Source: a virus. Taken from it: a stretch of 64,000 bases of DNA. A program made the position numbers and the translations under genes. The stretch is from IMG/VR virus record IMGVR_UViG_3300045988_141624, positions 1 to 64,000 of that record; one strand, given 5' to 3'. Below, one piece after another: positions 13,605-60,864 of this stretch. The notes under the pieces are model-generated. The model made no database searches. It was not told where the DNA came from and saw only the letters and a program-made list of their open reading frames with translations. How positions within the stretch are numbered: position 1 is the first letter of the stretch; the number at the start of each line of letters is the position of its first letter.

Positions 13605-14801
13605 TTGATTAAAATTGAAAATATTGATGTGTTTGGTTGGGAAGCAGCTATTCGTGGAATGCGTAATCCGATGAATAGTTGGGATAAGAGTGATAGCTGG
13701 AAATTTACGCATATGGACGCTTTTACTCAAGAACATCTTGGAGTAGGATTTCATATTGGTGAAAACGATCTTAAACTCATGAAATCACTCTCCAAAGCTG
13801 GCAACGACCATGCTAAGTTCTTGCGTATGATTAACGTAACGTGTGACATTACCGCTCCAAGATTTTGGTGGGAACAATTTTCGACATATCGTGTCGGGGT
13901 TGTGCAAAATAGTACGTCTACCATGCATCGACTGACGCATAAAGCTTTTGGAATAGAGGATTTTAGTTGTGAACATTTAAGAGGGTATTCTCCAACACAT
14001 AAAACTTTTATTCCTCCGTTAAGGGAAGATGAAGAAGTATGGCGAGTTTTCAACAATACTAATTATGAAGTTAGCAGCGAGGGTAGAGTTAAAGTTAAAT
14101 ATAATCAACATCATTTTGAAGACGGTAAACGAGGTTATTACGAACGAGAAATTGTAGGTTCCATACATAAAGATGGATATTTATTTGTAACAATTAAGGG
14201 AAAACAATATCCAAAACATAGACTAGTTGCTGAATTATTTATTAATAATCCATACAATAAACCGTTTGTTAATCATATTGATGGTAATAAACAAAATAAT
14301 CGTGTTGAAAATTTGGAGTGGTGTACACAAAAAGAAAATATTAAGCATTCTTATAAAACTGGTCTACAAGGAAAACCTGTTAAATCTCACCCCAGTAAAT
14401 TACTTCATTTAATTCCAGAAGCAAAAAAAATGTATTTAGAAGGATTGAGCAAAAGAAAAATAGCAAGTGAACTTGGTATTTCTCACCCTAGTGTAAGTTA
14501 TCTATTAGAATATGAAGAACCTAAAAATGAATTTAATGAATTATTAAAGACAATAGATAGGCTAAATATATTGAGAGAAGAGTATTTGGATACGAAAGAT
14601 AAAGTAGTATGGAGGAATATGATTGAACTGCTCCCGCAATCCTACAACCAAAAGCGCACGGTTCAGTTAAACTATCAAGTTTTAAAATCTATGTATTTTG
14701 CGAGACGAAATCATAAACTTGAAGAGTGGCATACATTCTGTGATTGGATTGAGAGTCTGCCATATTCAGAGTTGATTATCGAATGCGGAAGAGATAAATA
14801 A
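13605..14801 (+). CDS. Divergent ThyX-like (flavin-dependent thymidylate synthase fold) protein carrying an in-frame HNH endonuclease module
   Basis: The TTG start follows AAGGAGG. The flanks resemble the ThyX layout: GNDHAKFLRMINVTCDITAPRFWWEQFSTYR...NSTST, then LLPQSYNQKRTVQLNYQVL..MYFARRNHKLEEW. However, the RHRxxS motif is not conserved. Confidence 0.6.
   Translation: MIKIENIDVFGWEAAIRGMRNPMNSWDKSDSWKFTHMDAFTQEHLGVGFHIGENDLKLMKSLSKAGNDHAKFLRMINVTCDITAPRFWWEQFSTYRVGVVQNSTSTMHRLTHKAFGIEDFSCEHLRGYSPTHKTFIPPLREDEEVWRVFNNTNYEVSSEGRVKVKYNQHHFEDGKRGYYEREIVGSIHKDGYLFVTIKGKQYPKHRLVAELFINNPYNKPFVNHIDGNKQNNRVENLEWCTQKENIKHSYKTGLQGKPVKSHPSKLLHLIPEAKKMYLEGLSKRKIASELGISHPSVSYLLEYEEPKNEFNELLKTIDRLNILREEYLDTKDKVVWRNMIELLPQSYNQKRTVQLNYQVLKSMYFARRNHKLEEWHTFCDWIESLPYSELIIECGRDK
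14025..14520 (+). mobile_element. HNH (NUMOD4 plus HNH_3 plus HTH) homing-endonuclease-like module fused in frame inside the ThyX-like gene
   Basis: EVWRVF..NYEVSSEGRVK (NUMOD4-like), NHIDGNKQNNRVENLEWCTQKEN (HNH), and LSKRKIASELGISHPSVSYLL (HTH). Boundaries are approximate. Confidence 0.6.
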
Positions 14802-27831: not shown

Positions 27832-30800
27832 ATGTATTTTAACAATCATGTTCATGATGAATACAGTAATGCTGCTTTAGGTTTTCCCGATGTAGTCAAC
27901 AAAGTAGAAGATGTAATTCAAAAAGCTTATGACTTGGGATTAAGTGGTATTGCAATTACTAATCATGAATGTGTTTCCTCACATATTAAAGCATTACAAT
28001 ATTATGAGAAAATGGAAAAAGACAGACCTTTTAAAATTGCTTTGGGGAATGAAATTTATTTAATGGACGAAAGTGAGGACGAAGAAAACAGAACAGAAAA
28101 AAGAACAGTTTATCCTTATTATCATTTTATTTTAACAGCTTTAGACACCTTGGGCCATAAACAAATCAGAGAGCTTTCAACAAGAGCTTGGAAAAGAGCC
28201 TATTTCTCTAGGGGTTTAATGAGGACACCCACTTATTATAGTGATATAGAAGAGGTTGTTGGACAAGAAAAAGGCCATATTATTGCCTCGACCGCTTGTC
28301 TTGGAAGCTTTTTAGATAAGATGATTTTGCAATGGAAAAATGGGGATAATACAGCAAAATTAGCTATTCATAGCTTCATAACGTGGTGCATTGATACTTT
28401 TGGTAAAGATAATTTCTTTTTAGAAATTCAACCATGTTATGAAGATAATGTAGAACAAGTGACAGTTAATTCAGCAATGAAAGAATTATCTAAAGCATAC
28501 AAACTAGGAATCATTCCTACTACTGACGCTCATTATTTAACAAAAGACATGGCTTTTGTGCATAAAACCTATCTAAATTCTAAAGAGGGTGAGCGAGAAG
28601 TAGATAAATTTTATGCCATGACTTATCTAATGGACGAGGAAGAATTGAGAACGTTTCTCAAATTGCAATTTTCCATTAAAGAAATAGATGAAATGTACAA
28701 GAATACGTTGTTAATTTGGGATAGAATTGAAAAATATGATTTACAACACAATCCTATTATTCCTCAAATTCCCGAAGAGAAGTTACCTCAATTTAAAATC
28801 AGACATTTGTTTAAGGAATGGTATTCTAAATATCCTAATTTTGCTTTTTATAGTAACAACGAGAGAACACTCCATGAACAATATTTCTTTTATCAAATTG
28901 AAAAAGGATTTGAAAAAAAGGTTTGTAATAGTGTAAAACCTAAGAATATAGAACAATATATAGCAAGATTAGATGAAGAATTTGAACAATTTCGCTTAAT
29001 AAGTGAAGCATTGGGTACATCTATCCCCTGTTATTTTAGCTCTATGTCCCGAATAATAGATATAATATGGGACATTGGTAGTTTAGTTATGCCAGGGAGA
29101 GGTAGTGCGGGTGCATGTCTTTCTTGTTATTTATTGGATATTACACAAATAGACCCCGTTCCTTTTGGTGATTATATGCCGTTTTGGAGATTCCTTAAAT
29201 AATTTTTTATCCTAAATCATTAAGACATGGATAAAAAATTTAGGGCCTTATATTAGGAATGATATAAGTGGAGACTGTGAACTATCTAACCAATAGGTGT
29301 GAGAATGTAATTCTTGCTAACGAGGAAAGTCTAAGGATGAAAATCTATGATAATCTCGTGCCAAGCCCTTTGTCAAGGAAAGGTGTAACGACTAAGCAAG
29401 CTGAATGTGGTTACAGCTTTAGCGCAGTCTACCCCAACTGAAATAAGTGGGTAAAGAAATAGTCTATCCCGCTATGGAAACATAGCGGTAGTGAGAAACG
29501 TACAACGCGGCGTAGAACTTCCAGATTAATAACATAGTTTGGCTATATGGTGACATATAGAAAATAAAGTGGCTAACCAGTGAAAGTGCTGGGTGTGAGG
29601 AAAATCCTTGCTAACAGTGAAAACCTTGTTCATCCTGAATCGTGAACATGGCGATACTGTGCCAAGTTTTGTATTAAAAATACATTAAAGGTGCAACGAC
29701 TAAGCCCCGTAGGGTGAAACTCCCCGCGGTTAATGCCACTCTCTCCAATTGGAGATGAAGATATAGTCTAAACCGACTGTTTATTCAGTGTTAAAGTATT
29801 GGGAATAAATAACCAACGGTATAATTGATTGACACAGATTCAGAATCATCAAAAAAGAATGAAATTGTTCAGGGTGTTGTAGATTTCTTTGGTGAAGATA
29901 GGGTGTTAAGCATTGCAACATTTTCTGCCTTAACCAGTAAAACGGCAATAGAGAAAAGCTGTAAAGGCTTGGGAATTAATAATGATACAGCTAACTACAT
30001 TAAAGCTATGATACCTATTGAGCGTGGTTTTACTTGGAGCTTAAAAGATTGTTTTGAGGGTGATTTGGAAAAGCAAAGAAAACCAATTCAAACATTTATT
30101 AATGAAGTCAACAAATATCCTAAGCTAAAAGAATGTGCTTTGGCTTTAGAAGGATTGATAACAGGAAGAAGCACTCATGCAGCGGGCATCTTAATTGGGA
30201 ACGAACCTTATACCAATTTCATAGCTGCAATGCGATCTCCCAAAGGCGATTTATGTTCTTGCTATGACCTAATAGACGCTGAACACTGTGGGGAAATTAA
30301 ATTTGACTTGTTAAAAACCAATGCAACAGATAAAATTCACACAACGTTAGATTTGTTACTTAAAGACAATTTAATTGAATGGCAAGGAAGTCTAAAGAGC
30401 ACCTATGAAAAATATATTCATCCCGATGTATTAGATTATGAAAACCCTAAAATGTGGGATATAATTAAAAATATATATAGTGTTTTTCAATTTGATACAA
30501 ATGTCAGTGTCCGCGCTTTAAATGCTACTCATCCTAAAAGCGTTATGGATTTATCTGCAACAAACAACCTGTTAAGGCTTATGTCTCAACCAGGACAAGA
30601 ATCTCCCCTAGATAAATATGCACGTTTTAAAAACAATATTAATGAATGGTATAATGAAATGGAAAGCTATGGGCTTTCTAAAGATGAACAAAAATGCTTA
30701 GAGGAATATTTAATTGATTCTTATGGACTAGCAGACAGTCAAGAAAAAGTAATGCGTCTAAGTATGGATAAAAGAATAAGTGGTTATACATTAAAAGAGG

Positions 30801-32710
30801 CAAACAAACTTCGTAAAAGTATTGCGCGGAAATCACAGAAATTACAAGAAGAAGCTAAGCAACAATTTTTTGAATATGGAGAGAAATTAGGCACCAGAAA
30901 AGAATTTTTAAATTATGTATGGAATGTTATTTTTGGTGCGTCATTTGGCTATGTAGAAATGGTCATGATTTGTGAACCTTACCAGGGGTGTGCTGTTATT
31001 TAACAGTGCTAACGGTATCAGCTGAATAAGACTGTTGTTCAAGAGTTACAACTAGATAACAACGTTAAAAAAGACGAAGCAGCTGACTAAGAAAATCTAA
31101 GGTCTATGTAAAATAGATAGCTGACAATACCGTGCGGTTTCTTATGAGGTCGTGTAGAGACTATTCCGATAGGAAGTACACTAACTATTGGTACGTTGGT
31201 GGAAGTGCAAATCTATAACAAATTTTGTTATAAAGATATAGTCCGATGGATTAATATGAAAATTCATATGTTGTAGAAATACAAAAATCCACTCGATTCC
31301 TTCTCCCAAATTCATTCAACCTCTTATTCTATTATCGCCCTACAAGAATTAAATCTTAATTATTATTACCCCTCAGTCTATTGGAATTGTGCTTGTTTAA
31401 CAGTGGAAAGTCAATCAGACGATGACACAGATAAAAGAACAGCAATAGATTATGGCAAAATGGCTCGCAGTATTTACAAGATGAAACAACATGGTATTGA
31501 TGTTTTGCCTCCTTCTATCAACAAATCCAATATTTCTTTTACACCCAATAAAGAAAACAACACTATTTTGTTTGGATTAGGTGGTATTTCAGGGATAAAC
31601 AATGAAGCAGCTAGAGAAATAGTTAATAATCGTCCATATAGTTCTTTTGAAGATTTCTACAACAAAGTTCAAAAGAATAAAAATACGTTATTAAAAAATC
31701 AAAAAATTATAACTTTAATTAAATCTGGTTGTTTTGATGAGTTTGATACTAGCAGAACAAATATTATGAAACAATATTTTGCTTTAATGTATGAACCAAA
31801 AGAAGAGTTGACTTTGCAAAATATGAGCAAAATATTAGAGTATGATATTCCTGTTCCCGAAGAGCTATTAAACCCTTATTTGTTAAGTAAACAAATAAAA
31901 CAGAAAAAGAATTTCTATAAAAACGATGAAAAAGCTAAGAGTAAAAAACATTATAGAGTGCCACATGATTTACAAAATGATTTATTAATTATGTTCCCTG
32001 AATTAAAAGAAGATGTTGATTATTATTATGATAGTGACATAATGATAATTATTGATAAAGCTTTAGACAAACAAATGAAAAAGATTAATGAAAAAATTAA
32101 AGAGTATATTACACAGGATAAAGTAAAGGATGAGTTTAATTCTAGGGGTAGAGAGTTGTTATACCATGAGAACATAAAACAAGAAAATGAATTGCAATGG
32201 GCTTTTTCTTCCACGTCTTTTTATCCAAACAATGAACATGAATTAAATAACATTGATTGTGATAAATATAATATTATTGATTATAATCTTTTACCAGAGA
32301 ACCCTGAATTTGAAACTAAGTATTATGTTAAGAAAGATGGTGAAGAGGTTGTTTGGAACCAATATTATCTTTATAGAATTTGTGGTACAGTAACAAGTAA
32401 GGATAAAAATAAAAGGACAGTAGATATTTTGACTCCCACCAATGATGTGGTAACAATTCGTTTAAATGATGAAGTTTATACTTATTATGAACAAAAAATA
32501 TCTGAGGGCACAGATACAAATAAAACCGTAATTGATGATAGCTGGTTTACAAGAGGAAAAATGTTATGTGTTGTAGGATATAGACAAGGGGACGGGTTCA
32601 GAGGAAAAAGATATAGAAGCTCAATTTTCAAACATACAATTATGTTAATAGAAAAAGTAAATCAAGACGGTTCTTTAGAGTTAAGAACAGAAAGAAAAAT
32701 AAAAGACTAG
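27832..32710 (+). CDS. dnaE: DNA polymerase III alpha subunit (PHP plus polymerase core), interrupted by three group I introns. Exons: 27832-29195, 29496-29526, 29828-30950, 31296-32710.
   Basis: PHP motif HVHDEYS, plus GRGSAGACLSCYLLDITQIDP. Spliced joins restore FWRFL-NVQRGVELPD-IDTD and GY-SFSQIHS. The exons sum to 3933 nt, which is 1311 codons. Confidence 0.85.
29196..29495 (+). mobile_element. Group I intron (PolIII intron 1, no ORF)
   Basis: The 5' exon ends in U and the insert ends in G. Core-like strings ttgctaacgaggaaag, ctcgtgccaag, gtgtaacgactaagc and aaatagtct. It is a paralogue of the next intron. Confidence 0.75.
29527..29827 (+). mobile_element. Group I intron (PolIII intron 2, no ORF)
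   Basis: The exon end ccagaU can pair with the intron sequence gtttgg (P1-like). Core-like strings ttgctaacagtgaaaac, ctgtgccaag, gtgcaacgactaagc and gatatagtct. It ends in G. Confidence 0.75.
30951..31295 (+). mobile_element. Group I intron (PolIII intron 3, no ORF)
   Basis: It splits GY|SFSQIHS. It contains agatatagtccga. The 5' exon ends in U and the insert ends in G. Confidence 0.7.
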
Positions 32711-35176: not shown

Positions 35177-35380
35177 ATGGAAGAAAAAATTGTTTTGTAC
35201 ACCACAAAGACCTGTCCCAGATGTAAAATCTTGGAACGCAAACTAATTGAGAAAGGAGTTAAATTTGAAAAATGTGATGATATGACAGAGCTTGAAGAAA
35301 GAAAAATGTATTCTGTGCCTGTTCTTCGTATAGGAGACAAATTTTTAAACTATGCTGAAGCATTTCAAAAATTTATTTAA
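35177..35380 (+). CDS. Glutaredoxin/NrdH-like redoxin
   Basis: CPRC active site after a beta-strand (VLYTTKTCPRCK), and the cis-Pro region YSVPVL. 67 aa. Confidence 0.7.
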   Translation: MEEKIVLYTTKTCPRCKILERKLIEKGVKFEKCDDMTELEERKMYSVPVLRIGDKFLNYAEAFQKFI

Positions 35381-35398: not shown

Positions 35399-38300
35399 TT
35401 GTCAAAGTTATTGGAAAAATATCAAGAACAATATAAGCCTTATGTAAAGTTTATTGATTCTTATCGTAAAGCTTCCAATGCAGCTAGTGGTAGTGAAGTA
35501 GACTCTAACGCAAATGTAGAGAATAAAAACATTACCACTTTACAAGGAGAACTAAACAAAAAAGAAATTATTGGAACAAATCGCACTCTAATGATTGAAA
35601 AACTTACAGAACTGTATGGCGAAGAAACCGCAAAAGAATACATTCGTCAACTTGAGGCCCATGAAATTTATAAACATGATGAAACCAGTATTATGCCGTA
35701 CTGCGTTAGCATTACAATGTATCCTTTCTTATTCGATGGGCTAACCAACATCGGTGGTTTATCTACGGCACCCAACAATTTGGATTCTTTTTGTGGGAGC
35801 TTTGTTAATTTAGTATTTGCCATTGCTTCTCAATTCGCAGGAGCAGTAAGCACACCAGAGTTTCTAATGTATATGGATTATTTCATTAGAAAAGAATATG
35901 GAAATGATTATTATTTAAAACCTGATTCTGTAGTATCAGCCATTGGTAGAAAAAGAACTATTCATTCTGTTATTCATGATAAGTTCAGCCAAGTTGTTTA
36001 TTCATTAAATCAACCAGCTGCCGCAAGGAATTTTCAAAGCGTAAACTAAAATGCGCCTATATGTAGTAATAGATATAGCAAACTCCTTTAATTTCTGGGA
36101 AATCTTATTATAATTATAGTTTTATCATTCATAATAAGACAATCAGAAGCGAAGCCCTATAAAGGGAACGTTCAACGACCATTGCGAAAGCAAGTACACT
36201 ATAAGCGTTTGATAGTGGAAATGGGGAGTATCCTTTCAAAGGATAGTGATATGGTCTACTCTTTATGGTGACATAAAGCAGTTCATAAGAGAACGCATAC
36301 AACGTAGCGCATTGTATGGAATACAAGGGTTTTGGAATATTGCTTATTTCGACCAACCTTATTTTAACGGTATGTTTGAAGATTTTGTTTTTCCCGATGG
36401 TTCTGAACCTTGTTGGGATAGTGTGAATTGGCTCCAAAAAGACTTTATGAAATGGTTTAATGCAGAAAGATTAAAAACAGCTACATCGTTCTTATCTTTC
36501 CCTGTTGAAACTGTTAATCTTTTGGATAATGGGACAGATTATGTGGATAAAGAATGGAAAGATTTCACAGCACAAATGTGGGCAGAAGGACATTCATTCT
36601 TCTGTTATAGAAGCAATAGTGTTGACTCGTTGGCATCGTGTTGTAGGCTCAGAAACGAAATTCAAGAAAACACGTTCTCATTTACGTTAGGTGCCGGAGG
36701 TGTGTCTACAGGTTCTAAAGGCGTTATTACCATTAACATCAATAGATTGGTGCAAAATGTTTATAAAAAGAATCCTCACGCAACATTAAAAGATATTTCT
36801 AAAACTGTTAGAGAACAAATTCATAAAGTACATTGTTACTTAACAGCATTTAATGAAATTATAAAAGATAATTTTAAATCTAAAATGCTTCCTGTTTATG
36901 ATGCAGGATATATTGCTTTAGAAAAACAATATTTAAGTTTAGGTATGTAATTTAATGCCTTACATTGCTTTTCCAGTTATCGCTGGGGTACTAAGGAGTG
37001 CTAACGAGGAAACCTGACTACCATAAGGTAAAAGGCAATCTCGTGGGAAGGAAGTTTTTGTATGGAAATTTATATGATTCAAAATGATATTAATAATATG
37101 GTTTATATAGGACAGATAAATAATTCAAAACATAGGTTGAAGCAACATGTTTCAGCAGATTTATTAAAAAGACTGTTTTATTCATTGAAATATGAACAAG
37201 ATAAAACTATGACTCAAATCGCTAGAGAGTATAAAATTGACATAAGTCAACTGAATAAAATTAACCAAGGACGCGACCACAGGGTTGATTGGCAAACATA
37301 TCCTGTTAGAAAAGGCAAAGTATCCAATCCGTTATACAAACATGCTGAGGAAATAAGAAACTTGCTTAAAAACACAGATATTCCACAAAAAGACATAGCC
37401 AGAAAATTTAATGTTTCTGTTTCCTCGGTGCGTGCTATCAATAAGGGGAGCTATTATAGAGATAATAAACTATCTTATCCTTTAAGATATAATTATCAAT
37501 GCTATAATAGTGGAAGAACCGCTCTGTCTCCTAGTGAGGTTTGTGAAATAGAAGAGAAATTAAAAAACACTAATATTTCAATGCGCTCCATTGCTGCGGA
37601 ATACGAAATCGCATTGACAACTGTTACAAATTTAAATATTGGCTCAATAAAAAAATATCGTAAAGAATCATTAAATTATCCATTGCGGAAACTTTAACCT
37701 GTATCGACTATCCTCGCATAGAGGAGTAAAAAAACTATTGATACGTTTTTTGAAATGGCAATGGCACTATCAAGGGATAGTAATTAAGAAATAGTCAGTT
37801 CTATTAGAAATAATAGGTTAAACGATTAACGGTTTTCTTGAAGGGGCAGAATTTTTAGGCATTGAGATTTCACCCAATGAGGAATATTTTGCCTATGGTG
37901 AAGCCATTCTAAAACCAATCTACGAAGAAAACAAAAAAGATAAAACATCAGAGATTATGTTTAACACGGAGTTCGTGCCTGAAAAGAGTGGGCACTAAGT
38001 AGGATAATCCATAAACTACTTATAGGAAATTTTCTTTAATTGACTCGGAAATCCAGAGGTGGACAACGAGGGGCAAGTTTAAATACAGCCTGAACGACTA
38101 AATAAGAAAACTTCATAGGAAATTAAATGAAGGTGCAATAGTCTGAACTCATATACAACCTAACTAAAGTATGAGAAAGAAAGTCAGATGTACAGACATC
38201 TTAAAGAAGAACTTTCTTCGCCAAGCTATCTTGGTCATTAAAGTAACAGAATTGGCAGAAAATCTCGGTGTTAAAAATGCAAAATGGGATAGAGAAGATG

Positions 38301-38966
38301 GATATTATGTTCCCAGAGATTGTTACAATAGCTATTTTTATATAGTAGAAGATGAAAATACTAACCTTTTAGATAAGTTTATTCTACATGGAGATAAATT
38401 AACCAAATATTTAGATGGTAGACAAAACTGCCTGTTACACCTTTTCCACTAATCAGTGGGGTATACAAAATATGCTAACGGTGAAGGCTAAGTCTTATTG
38501 ATACGCTAATACCGTGGGAAAGATTTTTACTATACAGTTAAAATCCAATCCTGTATCGACTATCTCCGTATCGGGAGAGTAGGGTTGTTATTGATACGCA
38601 ACCCGAAATGGGTGTTGCTGCGCAAAGCAGTTAAAATATAGTCAGCGCCGTTTGGAAACAACGGATAAAGTGGGTTCAGCTCTCCATGCTAACTTAGAAG
38701 AACATTTATCTAAAGAACAATACTTAAAAATGCTTGAAGTAGCTATTAAAACTGGTTGCAGTTATTTCACATTTAATATCCCAAATACAGCCTGTAATGA
38801 CTGTGGATATATTTCTAAACATAAACTAACCAAATGTCCTAAATGCGGAAGTGAGAACTTAGATTATATAACAAGAGTAATTGGTTACATGAAAAGAATT
38901 TCTAGTTTCTCAGAAGCAAGACAAAAGGAAGAAAAACAAAGATATTATGACAAAGTTAAAGTATGA
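35399..38966 (+). CDS. nrdD: Anaerobic ribonucleoside-triphosphate reductase (class III NrdD), interrupted by four group I introns. Exons: 35399-36042, 36329-36944, 37825-37980, 38255-38419, 38673-38966.
   Basis: Joins restore NFQSV-FWNIAYFDQPYF, KQYLSLG-INGFLEGAEFLG, NTEFVP-AENLGVKNAKWD and KYLDG-GSALHANL. The C-terminus has a CNDCGY..CPKCGS zinc ribbon and a glycyl-radical-type RVIGYM. The exons sum to 1875 nt, which is 625 codons. Confidence 0.85.
36043..36328 (+). mobile_element. Group I intron (nrdD intron 1, no ORF)
   Basis: The exon end agcgU can pair with the intron sequence gcgc 12 nt downstream. It contains ttcaacgacc and gatatggtct, and ends in G. Confidence 0.7.
36945..37824 (+). 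mobile_element. Group I intron (nrdD intron 2) carrying an endonuclease-like ORF
   Basis: Core strings gtgctaacgaggaaacc, ctcgtgggaagg and gaaatagtca flank ORF 37062-37697. The 5' exon ends in U and the insert ends in G. Confidence 0.75.
37062..37697 (+). CDS. Intron-encoded GIY-YIG-type endonuclease relative with three NUMOD1-like HTH repeats. The catalytic domain appears truncated.
   Basis: The N-terminal IYMIQNDINNMVYIGQ...RLKQH matches GIY-(x10)-YIG...R..H. Three repeats of the form (M/Q)..IA.(E/K)(Y/F).(I/V)..(S/T).(L/V)..(I/L)N.G follow. No downstream conserved Glu/Asn region is seen. Confidence 0.6.
   Translation: MEIYMIQNDINNMVYIGQINNSKHRLKQHVSADLLKRLFYSLKYEQDKTMTQIAREYKIDISQLNKINQGRDHRVDWQTYPVRKGKVSNPLYKHAEEIRNLLKNTDIPQKDIARKFNVSVSSVRAINKGSYYRDNKLSYPLRYNYQCYNSGRTALSPSEVCEIEEKLKNTNISMRSIAAEYEIALTTVTNLNIGSIKKYRKESLNYPLRKL
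37981..38254 (+). mobile_element. Group I intron (nrdD intron 3, no ORF)
   Basis: It splits FVP|AENLG. It contains ctgaacgactaaataag and gcaatagtctga. The 5' exon ends in U and the insert ends in G. Confidence 0.7.
38420..38672 (+). mobile_element. Group I intron (nrdD intron 4, no ORF)
   Basis: It splits LDG|GSALH. It contains atgctaacggtgaagg, accgtgggaaag, cctgtatcgactatc (also present in intron 2) and aaatatagtcag. Confidence 0.7.
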
Positions 38967-39465
38967 GTCTTATTCAATTATTTTCCAAGAAGTTCCTGAT
39001 GAAATAACTTTGGGATTTAATATCAGTGGTTGCCCTTACAAGTGTGAGGGCTGCCACTCCCCCTTCTTATGGGAAGATATAGGAACACCTTTATTAGAAA
39101 ACATTGAATCTGTTATTAAAAAGTATGAAAACCTAATAACTTGTGTTTGTTTTTTTGGCGGTGACCAAAACAAAGACGAACTCCTGGAATGCCTTAAAAT
39201 TTGCAAAACTTATAATTTAGCCACTTGTTTATATTCTGGTTACGGCAAAGGGCGACGACATGAATCAGAAGAATTGAAATATTTTTTGCCGATAATCCCT
39301 TACCTAGATTATCTTAAAATAGGTGAATATAATAAAAAATTAGGTGGGCTAGCCTCTAAGAATACAAATCAAATCTTTTATAAAATCGAACACCAAGGAA
39401 ACAACAAGCGCATGTTAAGTGATATAACTTCTTTATTCACTGAAAAATCGGAGGTAATTAGATAG
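38947..39465 (+). CDS. nrdG: Anaerobic RNR activating protein (radical SAM, NrdG)
   Basis: GCPYKCEGCHSP (CxxxCxxC cluster motif). It overlaps the end of nrdD. Confidence 0.8.
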   Translation: MTKLKYESYSIIFQEVPDEITLGFNISGCPYKCEGCHSPFLWEDIGTPLLENIESVIKKYENLITCVCFFGGDQNKDELLECLKICKTYNLATCLYSGYGKGRRHESEELKYFLPIIPYLDYLKIGEYNKKLGGLASKNTNQIFYKIEHQGNNKRMLSDITSLFTEKSEVIR

Positions 39466-39917
39466 TGCTTACATATGCTAATTATTATATAGATAACATA
39501 CTTCCAAAAGAAAAAGTTCTTATTATTAACACATATCAAGAAAAGGTATCTTCTTATGATAAAAGATTGGTAAAAGACATTTCTAAAATCCTCCCTAAAT
39601 TTAATGATGTAACCTGTGTTTGTTTCTGGGAAGTTTACGATGATTTTTTCTATGAAGAAATAAATCTGGATGAACTTAAAAAGATTTTATCTTATTGCAA
39701 AGAACTAAACTATAAAACGTTTCTATATAGTTCCTATCACAGTGACAAAGAACGTGAAATCAAACGATTTGAAACGATTGCAAAAAACTTAGATTATTTG
39801 CGCATAGGATATTACAATCAACAAGGTAAGACTTATAAGGTTACATTGGACAAAAATCATGTATATCTTGAAAACATTAATAATAAATTCAGAAAGGACA
39901 ATAAACAAATACTATGA
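39465..39917 (+). CDS. NrdG paralogue lacking the radical-SAM cysteine motif
   Basis: It aligns with the NrdG C-terminal two thirds: VTCVCFWEV..ELKKILSYCKELNYKTFLYSSY..LDYLRIGYYN against ITCVCFFGG..ELLECLKICKTYNLATCLYSGY..LDYLKIGEYN. It has no CxxxCxxC motif. Confidence 0.6.
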   Translation: MLTYANYYIDNILPKEKVLIINTYQEKVSSYDKRLVKDISKILPKFNDVTCVCFWEVYDDFFYEEINLDELKKILSYCKELNYKTFLYSSYHSDKEREIKRFETIAKNLDYLRIGYYNQQGKTYKVTLDKNHVYLENINNKFRKDNKQIL

Positions 39918-53566: not shown

Positions 53567-56500
53567 TTAGCGTAGGCTCCCCACTTGAATAGCTGTTGAC
53601 ATAAAATTGTTTTTCAATGTATTTACAAAAGAACTTGCGTCTTTAACATTCGGTAGTACCAACTTTTCAAAATTAAACTGATTATTGGTGTCTCCACTTC
53701 CAGAATTATTATTTGCCCCCAACATGCTTAACCATTGTGACGGATGATATTGTCCAATTTCCATTAAATTTTGCGCCAATGTATGAGGAACAATACCAGA
53801 ACCACGACTCAAAGGTGCTAAAATATTCTGTTGTGACGGAATATATAATTCGCTACCATTTTCGTTAATATTTCCTATCATGTTTCTAGGAATATATGCA
53901 CTACCAGAAGCAAAGCCCTTGGCTGATAAAGCGCTTTGAGTTTTGCTACCAAACACACCATCAACAGATAAGCCAGAATCTTTTTGGAATTTCTTTAGCG
54001 CATTTACGGTTTGAGTTCCCATAACGCCATCGACCGCCAAGTTCCCATAACCCAAAGAATTTAAAGCGTTTTGCAAAGCCTTTACATTATCGCCTTTACT
54101 GCCTTTTTTCAGCGTTCCAGAAGATTTAGTTGATGAACTTCCTCCACCACTGCTTTTTCCAGGAGAAATGTAATTATCATCCAACTGCTGAAGAATAGAG
54201 TTATATTGACTAATGAAACTCTTTAAATTACCAAGTCTCTTTTCCCAATTCTTTTGTTCTTCATTTACACCAAATATCTGTTGAGCAATTAATCTCTTTT
54301 GGTTATTTTCATAAGAATCAGCAGCTTCTTGCCACAAATCCTTATAATCTTCCCAATATTGTATTTTCTCATCATATTTATCTTCGGAAGCTTGCTTTTG
54401 ATTTTGTAAATCCTCTAATTCTTTTTCATAAGCTTGTTTTCGTCTTACTTCATCTAAGTTCTTTTGAGCTTCATTTACAGCGCCTATGTCACTTTCATAA
54501 ACAAAGCCCTTTCCCTCACGATATATTCTAACTCGCGTGTTCTCAGCTTTAGCAAGACTCTCCAATGCTTCTTCTAATTCTAATTGCTTATCTAACTCTT
54601 CATTTTGCTTTTGCAACGCTTTTATTTTAGCATCCCAATACTCTTGCTCTTTCTTCTTTTGTTTTTCTAACGCTTTTATCTCTTTATCAGCTAAATCATT
54701 GATATAGTCTAAAGCGTCTTCGTAGTTTTCTTTTTGTCTTTGTAGCGCTTCTTTTGCTGCATCGGACGTTTGCTTAGAAGCAGAACTTGTTTTAGATTTA
54801 GACTTAGAGCTAGATTTTTTAGAAGATTTTTTACTAGAACTTTTTTTCTTTACACCAGGAGCAGACCAATTTTGAGCAATAGGCGAAACACCGTCAATTG
54901 TTCCGTCCCCACTTAAAATATCTCTGGTGTCTTGAGCATTATATACCACATCGCCTTTGTGTAGGTATCCTAATTCAGCTCCATGTTCACCCGCTATATA
55001 AGCATTTCTACCATGTTTATCTGTTACAAGCTCAGGCCCTTTTTCACCCAACCAAGATAATTCATTCTTGGGTGCACCGGTCGGAGGAGTGCCCGTCCAA
55101 CTACCTTTTACTTTTGATAAATAATTGTTTACAATATCGTCATAACTCGGGTTTCCTGCGCCTGGCCCCGTCACTTTTGTTTGTATCGTAACCGTTTTAA
55201 CAATGTTTGGCATTTTGCGCACATCGTTAAATTGGTCTTGAACAGTAGTTAAATCTTTTTGAGCGTCCTCAGAATCAACATCAACATGCAATAAAGCTCT
55301 AAGCTCAACATCAGACGCCTCTTTAGCTTTGGCTATTTCCTCATCAATTTTTTCCAACGGAGTATTACCGTTTTCATCGCTTACATCAGTTTTAATATTT
55401 ACTTTCTTAATTATCTCACTGATTTCAGAGCTTGTAAAGCCCATTTTTGATAAGAAAGCCACCAAATCAGATAATTTAGCAGTCGCTTGACCCGTACTAG
55501 CGTCAACACTAATAATCTTTTGTTGAGTTAATAAATCCGTCCAAGCCTGAGTAGAAGATTGTAAATCTAATATTTCAACCCCAGCTGCTTTAGCTTGTTC
55601 TATAAAATTATAAAACTCAACATCGGTCATACCCATGGCTGTTTGAGCATCAGCACCAAGCATTAATAATTTTTTACCATTATCATCTACAACTAGACCA
55701 AGTTCACTAGCTTTTGACATCAATGAATCAAAATCGTATTCTATAACCCCGCCTGTTTGTTTGTAAGCTTCCAACAAAGCAGAAAGAGCTTCTCGTGGTA
55801 TGCCTAGTGCTTGTGCTAATTTTTCAGCATTTTTAATCATAATATTGCCTGCGGCGTCAACACTAGCAATATCAGGAGTTACCCCAGCGCCTGAAATAAG
55901 GTCACCTAGCTTAGAATAATCTCCATCTTTAATAAACTTATAGAAGCTTTGGTATCTTTCTCTCGCAGTTTTCTCAGCTAAATCCCAATTACCATTGAAA
56001 TCAGCATACCAATTCTCACCAAAGAATATGCTCATTAACTCTTGGGTCTGAGCACCACGATTTCCTTCAGCAAGATTTTTCATCAACTGCTCATAACCTT
56101 TTGACATATTAGCTAAATGAGCGGTTTCAGGTTCTATTTTTAAAGCAGCTGTTACTCTATCAGAAATGCCTTGTGCACCAGCTTCAATTTCATCGCCTTC
56201 TGCCTTTAAGGCATTGCGCATTTGGGCTAAAGAATCTTTAAACTTAGGAGCATATTCAGACTCGGCTAAATTTAATAAAATTTTCCTAGATTCTTCTATG
56301 CTCTTGTTACCAATCGAAAAATCAGAACTATTAATAGTTTTTACAAGATTATCATAGTCTTGAGCATTTTTAATTTCAGCTGCGCCCATTTGAGTAAGAG
56401 CTTCAATACCCTCTTTTTTAATGGACTCAATATAAGCGTCTTGGGCTGAATTTACTTTATCTTGAGCCTCTTGCAGACTTGACAACTTGGTAGAAACAGC

Positions 56501-59500
56501 ACCCAGTGCATCTGATACATCCATTCCTGCTCCTTCGGCTTGTCTAAGCTTATTGAGCATTATAGAAAGTTTAGATATTTGTTCTTCAACAGGGGCGTTA
56601 TTGTCCCACATTTTGCCCCACTCGTCACCAAAGACTTGTCTAAATTGCCTTAATGCGGAACCCGTTGCTTCCACAGACGCAGTTTGAGCTTCCTTTAACC
56701 CCTTCTCAGCTTCTACTATTTGAGCTTGTAAATATGTACTATTGTTTGCTAATCTCTTACTATAAATTCCACCAAGAATTTGAGATTGCTCTTCATACTT
56801 CCCATTAACTAAATCTATACCAGCTGCCTCATCGCCAATTGAATCTACAATCTTGCCTTGTAATTCACTCAACTGTTTGTTTATAGCAACTCTTTCTTCA
56901 TCACTCTCAGCGTTTTTCTTTTGAGCTGCTAATTCTCTGTATTGAGCTAATTGCTCACCTAGAGTGGTAGTTAATTCACTTTCCTTTTGGCGCAATTCTT
57001 CAGCTTTTTGTTGCTGCTCAGCTCTAACTTGACTAGCATGAGCAGAAAGAGCAGAAAAAATACTAATACCAGCGCTTAAAATGCCTAGGAATCCACCGAC
57101 CCCCATAACCCTTGAGAAAGCACCTACGCCACTTGCTAAAGAACTAAACGCACCCTCGCCAACAGAACGTAAAGAACTAAATGCAGAAGTCGCTGCTTTT
57201 ATAGCTACTGGAATGTTTTTAAACGGTTCTATTAAACTAGTAAAACTATTTTTTAAATTGTTTACTGCATTAGGAAATTGATTTCCTATAAAAATTCCCG
57301 CAAATGTTACCAAAACGGGTATAAAAGTTTGTAGTCCACCCAAAGCATTTGCCACTTCTAAAATAGATGTAGCAAAACTAAGTATAGTTTTTACAGCGCC
57401 TGAACTAATACCTTTTGTAAAGAAGGCTTCAAACTGAGCCGTAAGCCCCGCTATTTTACCTTCAATAGAATCAAGATATGCCGCATTTTCTCTTGAGGCA
57501 GAACCAAAAGAGTTCATAGCGACTTCACTTGCACCAACCGCGCTATCAAAGTTTGAAAGCACACTGTTTACAACGTCTCATTTGTATTAAGTTAATATAA
57601 TTAACCGTAAATAAATTTAGCTAACTCCTTTTTATAAGAACCATCTCTAAACGTCCAATATGGCAATCTCAATAAAGGAATATTATTATTTTTACAATAT
57701 TTATTTTTTATTTCATCTCTTTTTTTCTGATTTAATAAACACTCTTCATCTGTTTTTTGCGTGGTTGTAAAATGAAATATGCCGTCCACTTCTATTAGTT
57801 TTAAATTAGAATCTTGTTTAATACAATAATCAAACCTTAATTTTCTTTTATAAACACAATCATCAAAAGAAAATTCTTTAATATATTTTATATTATTATT
57901 GTTCAACCAATCTTCTACCAAAAACATTATAGAAGAAGTAGCTTTTGTACAAACCGTACATCTTGTTTGTCCTCTTAAAAAAGAAGCTAAACTTACTGTA
58001 AAAAATTTCCCACAACCACACTTCATAATTAAATGTTTTTTATTTGTATCAATTTCTTTTAAACAACACGACAGCTTATTTCTAACAATATAGTGTTTAA
58101 TATTATAAATAAAATAAGGATTATCCCATTTGAAAAACCGAGTTTTTAATTTGTTATACCTGTTTAAAGATAAATAACTTATAACACTTCTATACCCTTC
58201 CTTGTTTTCAAACGGCAATAACTCTTTAATATTATTATACTTATCAAACAATGGAATTAATTCCAAACTTTCAAATGTCTTTTTAACGTATTCTATCTTG
58301 TGTTGCTTATATTCATGAGCTCTTTTTATCGAGCATTTTTGACAAGTACAACATTCACTTTCTAAAAAATGATACAAAGTCTTTGGATAAATTTCCCCAC
58401 ACTTCTCACAAACAAAAAACAGAGGGCTTTTATTTGCGTTTATATATTCTTCACTAATCAAAGACGTATTTTTATGCATTATTTTAATATAATGTCGTAT
58501 ATTTTCTATGGTGTAAGGATTATACTTAGAATATCTTTGAAACTTATAAGTATTACTCATTTTTATTGCTTCCTTTGATAATAAATACTTATAACCTTCA
58601 CCATCTACACAAAAAATTTTATCCTTTATTCTTCGGACGTTTACATATCCATTCTTTAATAATTCTTTAATTTCTTCCATTTTATTTCCTTGCTAAATTT
58701 ATTCACTCTTATACTTTCATATAAGATTAGACTATATTTTTATCACAATATAAAATCGTAATAACTGGCTCTTTCCACATAAATACTATGTGTACCCTAC
58801 TTGCTTCGTCTATTAAAATAGCTTATTCTATTATATAATAGTTACATTTATTAATTCTTATAAAAACTTATTAATTCTTATAGAAACTAATTGCTTTTGG
58901 TAGTCGTTGAACCTTATTCTATATTTCAATAGAATCTTGGCTGCGGATTGACCATATATCTTTACGCTTTTTACCATACTCTAGTTAGTTACTCTAAACC
59001 ATTGAAACATTGCTGTCTCAACTTGGTACGCAAAGCTTTAGGCTTCCATGTCTTTTACACAGAAATAGTAAACCACTCTATCTTCCCCGCAATTTAGCCA
59101 GTACGGGCTTATGTTGCAAAACCTGGGTTTTCTTGTTTGTTAGCTTTTGCTTTCACAAAAGAACGGATTATATTTTAATATTGTTCAAAACAATACCGCA
59201 GACTCTTTCCATATATACATATGTACTCTACTCGCTTCGTCCATTTATATGGCTTATTCTATCATACGATAGTTACATTTGTCAACTTAAAGTCAACTGC
59301 TTTTGATAATCTCTGAACCTTATTCTATATTTCAATAGAATCTTGGCTGCGGATTGACCATATATCCTTATACTTTTTACTATATCTTAGTTAATTACTC
59401 CAAGCCCCTAATATATCACTATATTAAGTTAGTATATAAGGCTCTTAGGCATCCATGTTAAACACAGATAAAAGTGATGAACCTTTTCTTTCCCGCAATT

Positions 59501-60864
59501 AAGTCTGTCCGTGGCTCAACCCTAGAGTCAACCACCTATCAAAGAGGCATAATAATTTTTAGTATTCTGGTCTAACGTATCCCAAATACCAGATAATTCC
59601 GAAAAAATTTCAAACGTAGATTTTAACTGTCCACCAGTACCCATTAGGGTTATACCGATTTTGTTAAAATCTTTTTCCATAGAGGCTAATAAGTCAAGGT
59701 TTTGTTCCCCTGAATCATCCATAGCCTGTAAATTCAATGTAATGGTTCTTAAACCACGAGCAACACGACTTGCTTGCCCAGGCATCATCTCGGTGCCTGC
59801 TGTTAGTACATTATATTAATAAAGAATCGTTACTTCTTTATGAATTGCACAAAACAATTCCTTACACTTTCATGTAAGATTAGATTATATCTTGTTTATA
59901 ATAAAATATAAACTGCCCCGTTTCCCCGCACTTGCGAGTATGCTATATTACAATAGACTTACTAATCGTTGAACTTTTTTCCATTGTCTATGGAAACTTA
60001 GCTGCGGATAACCCAATATTTATTTTTGTTACTATACCAAAAACATTACTTTTTGCCATCATAATATTACTATTATAATTTAGTAAATAAATCTCTAAGG
60101 GCTTCCCCGTCAATTAGAGGCATTTTACTAGACCAACTATTTTAGCCTAATGTTTGTTCCATGCTATTCCCAGCTTGCGCCATCGTAGCGGCAACTTTAG
60201 GAACAGCCGTGGCTAAATCACCTGAAGATACTGCAAACTTATTTGCTACTTCGTTTACAGCGTCTACAATATGCTCTGAATCTGCTGCTGTAATATTAAA
60301 TGCTTTCATTTGAGAAATCAAGAAAGCAGCAGCGTCACCAGCACTTACTTCTTCATCAGCAACATTCTGGAACATAGAAGCAACTTCAGCCAATTGAAGA
60401 GATTCTACATCATTAAAACCAGATTTAGTAAATTCAGTTGCAGCTTCAATTACTTGTGTAGCCGTTCTCGCAACCTTTTCACCAACCTGTAAAGCTCTAT
60501 TGCCAAATTGCTCTAGTTCAGCACCCGTCATGTCACTGACTTTTCTTAATTCTGTCATAGCTGCGTCTAATTCAAAAACAGAAGACACACCTTTTCTAAA
60601 AGAATTGTAAACAGAATCAATTATTTTTGTACCAATTTGCCATCTTGAGTTCTTATCAATAATACTGCTCAAGGACTGACTAGTTTTGTCCATGGCTTTA
60701 TTCATTTTATTGAAACCAGAAGTGGCAGATTTAGTACCAGCGTCACCAAATTTAAAACCCTTAAAGTTTGAAGCAAGCTTATTAAGCTGTCCTTGTAAAT
60801 TGTTTTCATCTAAAAGGGCTTTAACGTTAATACTATAATTATTACTTCCTGGCAAATAAACCAC
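53567..60864 (-). CDS. Tail tape-measure protein interrupted by three group I introns. Proposed exons: 60864-60150, 59808-59531, 59153-59121, 59559-53567 corrected to 57559-53567.
   Basis: The N-terminal fragment has a TP901-type TMP core (MTELRKVSDMTGAELEQFG...). The fragment 59788-59528 continues it (AGTEMMPGQASRVARGLR). The large C-terminal ORF is coiled-coil rich and carries a PG_binding_1 domain. The proposed exons sum to 5019 nt, which is 1673 codons. Junctions are uncertain by a few nt. Confidence 0.75.
57560..59120 (-). mobile_element. Group I intron (TMP intron 3) with an endonuclease ORF in its 3' region
   Basis: Core strings aattgcggggaag, atccgcagccaagattc, ggttcaacgactacc and aatatagtct precede ORF 58680-57601. 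It is a paralogue of intron 2. Confidence 0.65.
57601..58680 (-). CDS. Intron-encoded putative homing endonuclease: repeated zinc-ribbon modules plus a C-terminal PD-(D/E)XK (Vsr/DUF559-like) domain
   Basis: Several CxxC...CxxC pairs (CEKC..CCTCQKC, CGC..CTVC). The C-terminus reads RFDYCI...LIEVDGIFH...K..D, then PLLRLPYW. Confidence 0.5.
   Translation of the reverse strand: MEEIKELLKNGYVNVRRIKDKIFCVDGEGYKYLLSKEAIKMSNTYKFQRYSKYNPYTIENIRHYIKIMHKNTSLISEEYINANKSPLFFVCEKCGEIYPKTLYHFLESECCTCQKCSIKRAHEYKQHKIEYVKKTFESLELIPLFDKYNNIKELLPFENKEGYRSVISYLSLNRYNKLKTRFFKWDNPYFIYNIKHYIVRNKLSCCLKEIDTNKKHLIMKCGCGKFFTVSLASFLRGQTRCTVCTKATSSIMFLVEDWLNNNNIKYIKEFSFDDCVYKRKLRFDYCIKQDSNLKLIEVDGIFHFTTTQKTDEECLLNQKKRDEIKNKYCKNNNIPLLRLPYWTFRDGSYKKELAKFIYG
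59154..59530 (-). mobile_element. Group I intron (TMP intron 2, no ORF)
   Basis: The exon end gtggU can pair with the intron sequence gccac (P1-like). Core strings aattgcgggaaag, atccgcagccaag and atataatcc. It ends ..ttgtG. Confidence 0.65.
59809..60149 (-). mobile_element. Group I intron (TMP intron 1, no ORF)
   Basis: Minus-strand core strings aattgacggggaag, atccgcagctaag, ttcaacgatta and gatataatct. An alternative in-frame 5' splice site lies at 60144. Confidence 0.7.

Follow-up and report, generated by a model that had tools for sequence, protein, structure and literature searches.

The nrdD gene and its five exons

The stretch analysed here, called the window below, is 64,000 nucleotides (nt) of viral DNA (IMG/VR record IMGVR_UViG_3300045988_141624, positions 1 to 64,000). 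At positions 35399-38966 it carries nrdD, the gene of the class III (anaerobic) ribonucleotide reductase (RNR), which we read as five exons separated by four predicted group I introns. In the map of open reading frames (ORFs) of this segment, NrdD-like pieces are spread over two frames. The features are:

35399-36042, plus strand: nrdD exon 1, 644 nt; TTG start, with a GGGAGG Shine-Dalgarno sequence upstream
36043-36328, plus strand: intron 1, 286 nt, no ORF; predicted IA2-type with P7.1 and P7.2; phase 2
36329-36944, plus strand: nrdD exon 2, 616 nt; codes for the SCCRL motif
36945-37824, plus strand: intron 2, 880 nt; predicted IA2 of the T4 nrdD kind, ORF in the P6 loop; phase 0
37062-37697, plus strand: ORF of intron 2, 211 amino acids (aa); remnant of a GIY-YIG homing endonuclease, with helix-turn-helix (HTH) repeats
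37825-37980, plus strand: nrdD exon 3, 156 nt, 52 codons
37981-38254, plus strand: intron 3, 274 nt, no ORF; predicted group I without P7.1/P7.2; P9 extension; phase 0
38255-38419, plus strand: nrdD exon 4, 165 nt, 55 codons
38420-38672, plus strand: intron 4, 253 nt, no ORF; predicted IA2 of the T4 nrdD kind; phase 0
38673-38966, plus strand: nrdD exon 5, 294 nt including the stop; Cys4 zinc site and glycyl-radical motif RVIGY

Joined, the five exons (644+616+156+165+294) give 1875 nt, that is 624 codons and a stop, which agrees with the 625 codons counted in a preliminary description of this locus. The intron phases at sites 1 to 4 are 2, 0, 0 and 0. The spliced product matches Pfam NRDD (PF13597) with 317 bits (E=2.8e-94) over profile positions 4-560 of 562, and the Thermotoga maritima NrdD structures 4COI and 4U3E with E=2.4e-64 over residues 16-622. 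The alignment with T. maritima NrdD (4COI) is free of gaps at all four exon junctions. The same is true for an uninterrupted homologue of 625 aa, found in a set of 5.8 billion proteins, that is 86% identical to the spliced product and has identical residues at the joins: ARNFQSV-FWNIAYFDQ, G-INGFLEGAEFLG, NTEFVP-AENLGVKNAKWD and KYLDG-GSALHANLEEHL. Colinearity with NrdD, which the preliminary description had named among the checks on its five-piece reading, holds at every junction. Exon 4 alone, when used in a tblastn search, finds a contiguous NrdD segment in other sequences.

The motifs of the enzyme are in place. RVIGY aligns with RIVGY of T. maritima and RTCGY of phage T4, and CNDCG...CPKCG and SCCRL align with the same motifs, SCCRL being identical in T. 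maritima NrdD; we take this last motif to carry the thiyl-radical cysteine. In a related locus with 98% aa identity, L004, a total of 81 codons differ from the window over all exons, 71 of them synonymously and 10 non-synonymously, with no frameshift or stop. Because 71 of the 81 differences are synonymous, the spliced frame is under strong purifying selection. A frame that is restored four times, together with this excess of synonymous changes, cannot have arisen by chance. Judged from its sequence, the segment is one functional class III nrdD in five ORF fragments, and not pseudogene debris.

A tblastn overlap at the 3' end of intron 1 (residues 184-215) had the appearance of an exon duplication. 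Its score of 18, against 15.9 +/- 3.5 for shuffled sequence, identifies it as an extension artefact.

The gene is part of an operon, with the following neighbours:

35177-35380, plus strand: glutaredoxin/NrdH-like gene (Pfam Glutaredoxin, 3.2e-07), directly upstream of nrdD; possible reductant
38947-39465, plus strand: nrdG, radical-SAM activase (Pfam Fer4_12 and Radical_SAM); its start overlaps the end of nrdD

The NrdG activase is encoded next to nrdD. The T. maritima-type branch of NrdD uses thiol reductants, and the upstream glutaredoxin-like gene would fit such a role. The next ORF after nrdG (39465-39917, plus strand) codes for a protein that is paralogous to NrdG over the C-terminal two-thirds of the latter, with 39% identity (E=1e-13). 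Pfam gives no match for it, and the N-terminal Cys-cluster region is missing.

Empty sites in related loci

A scan of IMG/VR with the spliced NrdD protein gave 80 related loci, which were compared with the window by tblastn and blastn. In 73 of the 80 nrdD is uninterrupted, and all four introns together are found in the window only. Introns 2 and 4 are present in L004, where 1 and 3 are absent; intron 1 is the only one in L007 and L048 (83% identity), and intron 3 the only one in L009-L011 (71% identity). One further relative, L006, has an insert at a fifth site of nrdD. When the whole region was compared by megablast with 50,697 phage records, nothing matched.

These relatives provide an empty counterpart for each insertion site. 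Site 1 is GCGT-ATTTTGG in L004; site 2 is TTGGT-ATTAAT in L007 and L048; site 3 is GTGCCA-GCAGAA in L004 and GTTCCC-GCAGAA in L007; site 4 is GATGGT-GGTTCA in L007 and L048 (the hyphen marks the site). In every case the proposed boundary is exact, so that the exon coordinates and the introns 36043-36328, 36945-37824, 37981-38254 and 38420-38672 of the preliminary description stand to the nucleotide. Exons 3 and 4 are contiguous in L004, L007 and L048.

The four sites are conserved above average, at the 67th-80th percentile of 10-residue stretches of NrdD, and abut the invariant residues F216, G420, P472 and G527/G528.

The insert of L006 (a 69%-identical relative, positions 1631-2851) is of another kind, a LAGLIDADG intein that is in frame and about 407 aa long, within a single ORF of 1048 aa. 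It sits just before Cys102 (APY-...VHN-CVSITMY) and makes this the fifth invaded site.

As intron content varies among relatives, mixed populations do exist in metagenomes, and the intron-bearing reads of several strains might have been stitched or collapsed into one contig. We consider such an assembly chimera extremely improbable, since each intron is found at the same site in independent contigs, introns 2 and 4 occur together in L004, and the exons are continuous and in frame, with exact junctions on both sides of each intron.

Assignment of the inserts to group I

All four 5' exons end in U and all four inserts end in G, as was noted in the preliminary description; the position of this terminal (omega) G is fixed by the empty sites. 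In minimum-free-energy folds U36042, U36944, U37980 and U38419 each pair with a G inside a P1 helix of 5-7 base pairs. Excision of the four inserts restores a frame that is colinear with intron-less homologues. Inteins are ruled out by the in-frame stops that lie 2-11 codons past the 5' splice site in each insert, and group II introns by the size and the core motifs. Precise insertion, the U.G pair of P1, the terminal G and the P3-P9 core together support the prediction that all four inserts are group I introns. By predicted structure introns 1, 2 and 4, which have P7.1 and P7.2, belong to subgroup IA2, the phage type.

The same features bear on the idea that nrdD is a split gene without splicing, the pieces of which are translated separately and then assemble, the inserts being endonuclease cassettes or other mobile DNA. 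Working split RNR genes of this kind have been published, for instance in Aeromonas phage Aeh1, where mobE interrupts nrdA (PMC3653736), and intron 2 does contain an endonuclease-type ORF. However, exons 3 and 4 would code for pieces of 52 and 55 residues and have neither a start codon nor a ribosome-binding site at their 5' ends, three of the inserts have no ORF, and P1 with U.G, the terminal G and a group I core are found in all four. A split gene of this type is therefore very improbable, and we continue with group I introns.

Intron 1 is the only one of the four to pass the Rfam model RF00028. It scores 83.7 bits (E=7.9e-20) and exceeds the gathering threshold of 50 bits, which is an operational detection criterion and not a biological definition. 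Its core follows the full RF00028 alignment. The P1-like helix suggested earlier is recovered as GCGUA/UGCGC with U.G at the splice site, both in the Rfam alignment and in the minimum-free-energy fold. P7.1 and P7.2 (UUGC-GAAA-GCAA and CACUAU...AUAGUG) are found within an insertion of the Rfam alignment. The intron end set by the empty sites, 36328, lies 50 nt beyond the end of the Rfam model, and therefore intron 1 has P9 extensions. Its in-frame stop comes 2 codons in. The intron presumably resembles orf142-I2 of Staphylococcus phage Twort in P7.1/P7.2 and in the segment GAAAUGGGGA.

Intron 3 is 69% identical to its homologues in L009-L011. RNAalifold on the alignment with these homologues gives the helices P1-P6 and P9, with 84 pairs of which 17 show double-sided (compensatory) changes, and the U.G pair of P1 at column 10 corresponds to window position 37980. 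In the minimum-free-energy fold P1 is GUGCCUG/UGGGCAC with U.G. RNAalifold cannot draw the P3/P7 pseudoknot, and P8 of the window is misaligned; P7 and P8 of intron 3 were for this reason read directly from the alignment, as GACUA/UAGUC and as CUUCAU/AUGAAG, the latter against CAGCAC/GUGCUG in L009. With neither a P7.1 nor a P7.2 hairpin, intron 3 belongs to a subgroup other than IA2.

At site 3 the intron-bearing codon for Pro is CCU, with the U that is needed for the U.G pair (window position 37980). The intron-less alleles have CCA (L004, position 7698) or CCC (L007, position 4551), and would be poor P1 substrates unless synonymously changed.

The family of introns 2 and 4

Introns 2 and 4 are paralogues. 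With nhmmer the 5' half of intron 2 is matched at E=2.8e-15 and its 3' core at E=5.6e-16, and intron 4 at E of about 1e-19. The core motif shared by the two, GTATCGACTATC...ATAGTCAG, was found in over 120 contigs of IMG/VR. In the minimum-free-energy folds P1 is AGGUAU/AUGCCU in intron 2 and GGUAG/CUGCC in intron 4, both with U.G; direct reading of P1 in the family gives exon GGU with guide GCC and exon GGGU with guide GCCC.

To collect the family, 5' halves found with the nhmmer profile were paired with their own 3' cores, which gave 52 non-redundant members. The structure was written on intron 4, and pairing partners shifted by 1-3 columns served as control. Over the 52 members 90.5% of the pairs are canonical, compared with 39-44% in the shifted controls, and double-sided changes are found in P3, P4, P5, P6, P7.1, P7.2, P8 and P9; P7 was set by the search pattern and is uninformative here. 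P7.1 and P7.2 are canonical at 96.9% and 98.4%, with many double-sided changes. For P3 the value is 85%, with double-sided changes at five of its six pairs; the 5' strand is ACACCU in intron 4 and CAUUGC in intron 2.

Between P3 and J3/4 (GCUAACG) the family has two further covarying hairpins, with 88.8% and 85.9% canonical pairs; the part concerned is 36945-37061 in intron 2 and 38420-38525 in intron 4, and the other loci are L081-L200. Introns 1 and 3 retain the canonical P3-J3/4 order. One literature search for a two-hairpin insertion at this place gave no relevant report. The insertion probably explains both the misalignment of P3 by RF00028 and the low scores of the family. The P3 that Rfam proposes for intron 4 (AAUAUGC/GGGUGUU) was rejected: its 5' strand is part of a covarying hairpin, and its 3' strand covaries with a segment further upstream.

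Endonuclease genes and proposed intron history

The ORF of intron 2 matches only positions 4-38 of the 78 of the Pfam GIY-YIG profile, so its catalytic domain is incomplete. The orthologue in L004 has 345 aa and covers positions 4-78 of 78 with 48.5 bits; relative to it, an in-frame deletion of 402 nt has removed most of the catalytic domain. Introns 1, 3 and 4 have no ORF in the window. In L007 and L048, however, intron 1 contains an HNH-like ORF of 243 aa (Pfam HNH, 21.3 bits at a cut-off of 21.4).

No nrdD intron in the window keeps an intact homing endonuclease. Because the endonuclease genes are lost, truncated or absent, none of the four introns would be able to home alone. Homing or recombination may have brought the introns into their conserved motifs one at a time; among the relatives each intron is present or absent independently of the others. 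The loss of the HNH-like gene from intron 1, the truncation of the GIY-YIG gene in intron 2 and the lack of ORFs in introns 3 and 4 would place them at a late stage of the homing cycle; we infer this order of events, as well as the current mobility of the introns.

Predicted splicing of the four introns

After transcription each intron would fold, and exogenous guanosine would attack after the exon-terminal U that is held in the U.G pair of P1; the terminal G of the intron would then direct exon ligation. A full-length NrdD mRNA would require four independent two-step transesterifications, all of them successful. The early in-frame stops would make ribosomes terminate ahead of the ribozyme core. 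Sandegren and Sjoberg are said to have reported in 2007 that in T4 splicing is linked to translation of the upstream exon.

Our reading of the locus, to which we assign a probability of about 0.9, is an nrdD gene of a siphovirus-like phage in five exons, split by four independent self-splicing group I introns. The earlier suggestion of group I introns is thereby supported for all four inserts, for introns 2-4 by the evidence from family and covariation.

A number of points weigh against this reading. The RF00028 search suggested in the preliminary description succeeded for intron 1 but not for introns 2, 3 and 4, which remain below the gathering score in local searches of the coding strand (17.9 bits, E=0.06; 19.3 bits, E=0.018; and 28.5 bits, E=3.2e-05). 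Even these matches needed shorter search windows, as over 4.5 kb intron 1 was the only match and introns 2-4 gave none at E<=10. Twenty loci with the core of introns 2 and 4 had no match at all to Rfam, and these two introns depart from the canonical P3-J3/4-P4 order by the two inserted hairpins. RF00028 is known to under-detect phage variants, which Rfam and GISSD models miss (PMC11878797). Further, the 5.8-billion-protein set contains no full-length NrdD more than 86% identical that could stand in for the spliced transcript, and no intron-less allele of the same strain, the top full-length match being the 86% homologue. No clear co-conversion tract documenting homing was found when the window was compared with L004, L007 and L048; the 300 nt upstream of intron 1 have a higher density of single-nucleotide polymorphisms between window and L004, and at these positions L007 and L048 match the window and L004 in a mixed pattern. 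Finally, we infer the splicing of the four introns from sequence and predicted folds.

Some of these points would also be expected if the inserts were group I introns of which at least one no longer splices efficiently, nrdD being a decaying pseudogene or expressed in traces. That none of the four contains an intact homing endonuclease and that introns 2-4 score below the Rfam threshold would agree with such decay, and the yield of full-length mRNA would be the product of four splicing efficiencies. However, the core helices are all intact and fit the covariation of the family, the differences from the 98%-identical L004 are mainly synonymous (71 against 10) without frameshift or stop, and nrdG and the glutaredoxin gene are intact. 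Decayed splicing is thus unlikely, and four working introns remain the preferred reading.

Comparison with known systems

One close known system is nrdD (sunY) of phage T4, which belongs to the same host gene family, is likewise followed by nrdG, and has an IA2 intron with the endonuclease I-TevII. The preliminary description was right that T4 nrdD has a single intron, as its coding sequence is joined from two pieces. The T4 intron is of the same class as introns 2 and 4, with a colinear core: P7, P7.1, P7.2, GAAA, P3', P8, J8/7 (AAGAUAUAGUC), P7' and P9. It also has P1 with U.G, as the introns of the window do. I-TevII and the remnant in intron 2 are both of the GIY-YIG type, the T4 enzyme being intact and the ORF of the window truncated. 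A second difference is that P3 abuts J3/4 in the T4 intron, where introns 2 and 4 have the two extra hairpins. T4 NrdD is a distant branch, of which BLAST aligns only the C-terminal 165 aa. A comparison of insertion sites, also proposed earlier, could consequently be made only approximately, by motif alignment: the T4 site (Y179/E180) lies about 15 residues upstream of site 1 and is used by none of the four introns.

Other phages come close to the window in intron load. In 95 of 104 genomes of jumbo gut (Jug) phages nrdD is in fragments (Sci Adv 2026, PMC12880540), likewise through group I introns and with a high intron load over the whole genome. In a Jug example with four fragments, splicing was partly confirmed by metatranscriptome reads; for one Jug junction evidence of splicing was lacking (PMC12880540). 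These are phages of 360-402 kb from Bacteroides and Phocaeicola (PMC12880540), in contrast to the siphovirus-like window, whose DNA polymerase III alpha (pol III alpha) is nearest to that of Enterocloster phages. Some of the Jug inserts are inteins (PMC12880540), whereas the window has five exons and all four of its inserts are predicted to be RNA introns.

In a Zeta-group crAss-like phage the gene of the major capsid protein (MCP) is in five fragments with group I-type inserts (Nat Commun 2021, PMC7886860). The intron density is very high, as in the window, in a different gene and phage order; these introns were inferred from endonuclease domains only (PMC7886860), while RNA structure and empty sites were checked here. 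Among phages of Firmicutes, nrdE of Brochothrix phage A9 has three introns and an intein, and A9 nrdE as well as Twort orf142 and nrdE show that multiple IA2 introns can be found in one gene, within conserved RNR motifs (PMC3653736). These cases differ from the window in that they concern class Ib RNR or other genes of Herelleviridae myoviruses, for which no more than three introns in a gene are reported (PMC3653736). Genes of Bastillevirinae have up to three introns (PMC11878797), and nrdD of Lactococcus phage 949 has one (PMC3653736).

Since three or four intervening sequences have been reported for other phage genes, the word "extreme" used in the preliminary description for the intron load was an overstatement. 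Four RNA introns in one phage gene are at the top of the reported range, heavy but not unprecedented.

The 5' half of intron 4 (P3, the two hairpins, P4 and P5) is 76% identical to a sequence in Lactococcus phage LW81 of the 949 group (KY554777.1, 58339-58626). There it lies in an unannotated gap of 288 nt, and the ORFs on either side are each named topoisomerase subunit B, a host gene other than nrdD. By its sequence this gap probably represents an intron, so far without annotation, in a cultured phage and in the structural class of introns 2 and 4.

Other introns in the window

The window has genes for a tape measure, tail proteins and an endolysin, and a replication module with DnaB-like helicase, RecJ, pol III alpha and RecD2. 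It is from a siphovirus-like, gut-type phage that infects an anaerobe. Among cultured phages, those of Enterocloster bolteae are nearest by the N-terminus of pol III alpha (57% identity).

The pol III alpha gene (27832-32710, plus strand) is also split by introns. RF00028 finds two, 29223-29487 (62.5 bits) and 29535-29788 (52.7 bits), with a micro-exon of about 47 nt between them. A third, in the ORF-free gap 31004-31402, has no Rfam match even in local search; the nhmmer core profile matches 31152-31243 (E=6e-7), and the IA2 motifs can be read in the sequence.

On the minus strand, the tape-measure gene (53567-60864) is apparently in three ORFs, 60864-60142, 59788-59528 and 57562-53567. RF00028 matches on this strand are 60153-59861 (45 bits, E=1.3e-9), 59098-58893 (28.4 bits) and 58762-58710 (19 bits), and the region also contains an HNH-type endonuclease ORF (58680-57601). 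Another ORF of the homing endonuclease type (HNH_3/NUMOD4) is at 13605-14801 on the plus strand. Over nrdD, pol III alpha and the tape measure, the window is predicted to contain at least seven well-supported group I introns and two probable ones, about five of them outside nrdD.

More speculatively, introns 2 and 4 may, with the third intron of pol III alpha (31.0-31.4 kb), represent an undescribed structural subclass of IA2 introns of the T4 nrdD kind, defined by the two-hairpin module between P3 and J3/4. It would be widespread in phage metagenomes (the more than 120 contigs above) and present in cultured Lactococcus and Enterococcus phages, RF00028 would be essentially blind to it, and few known phage segments would have a higher density of introns than this one. 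We regard this as a doubtful, though possible, extension.

Implications

What is known in general of group I introns and RNRs is left unchanged, as multi-intron phage genes, including nrdD, have already been described. Less ordinary are the IA2 variant to which Rfam is blind, in which two hairpins separate P3 from J3/4, and the very high local density of introns. For annotation, this means that gene callers together with Rfam would miss three of the four nrdD introns.

Together with its relatives the locus makes up a natural series, with 0, 1, 2 or 4 introns at four conserved sites and an intein at a fifth, in which the endonuclease genes are intact in some relatives and deleted in others. Such a series is suited to the study of intron gain, of endonuclease decay, and of the cost of stacked ribozyme reactions in an essential gene of nucleotide metabolism.

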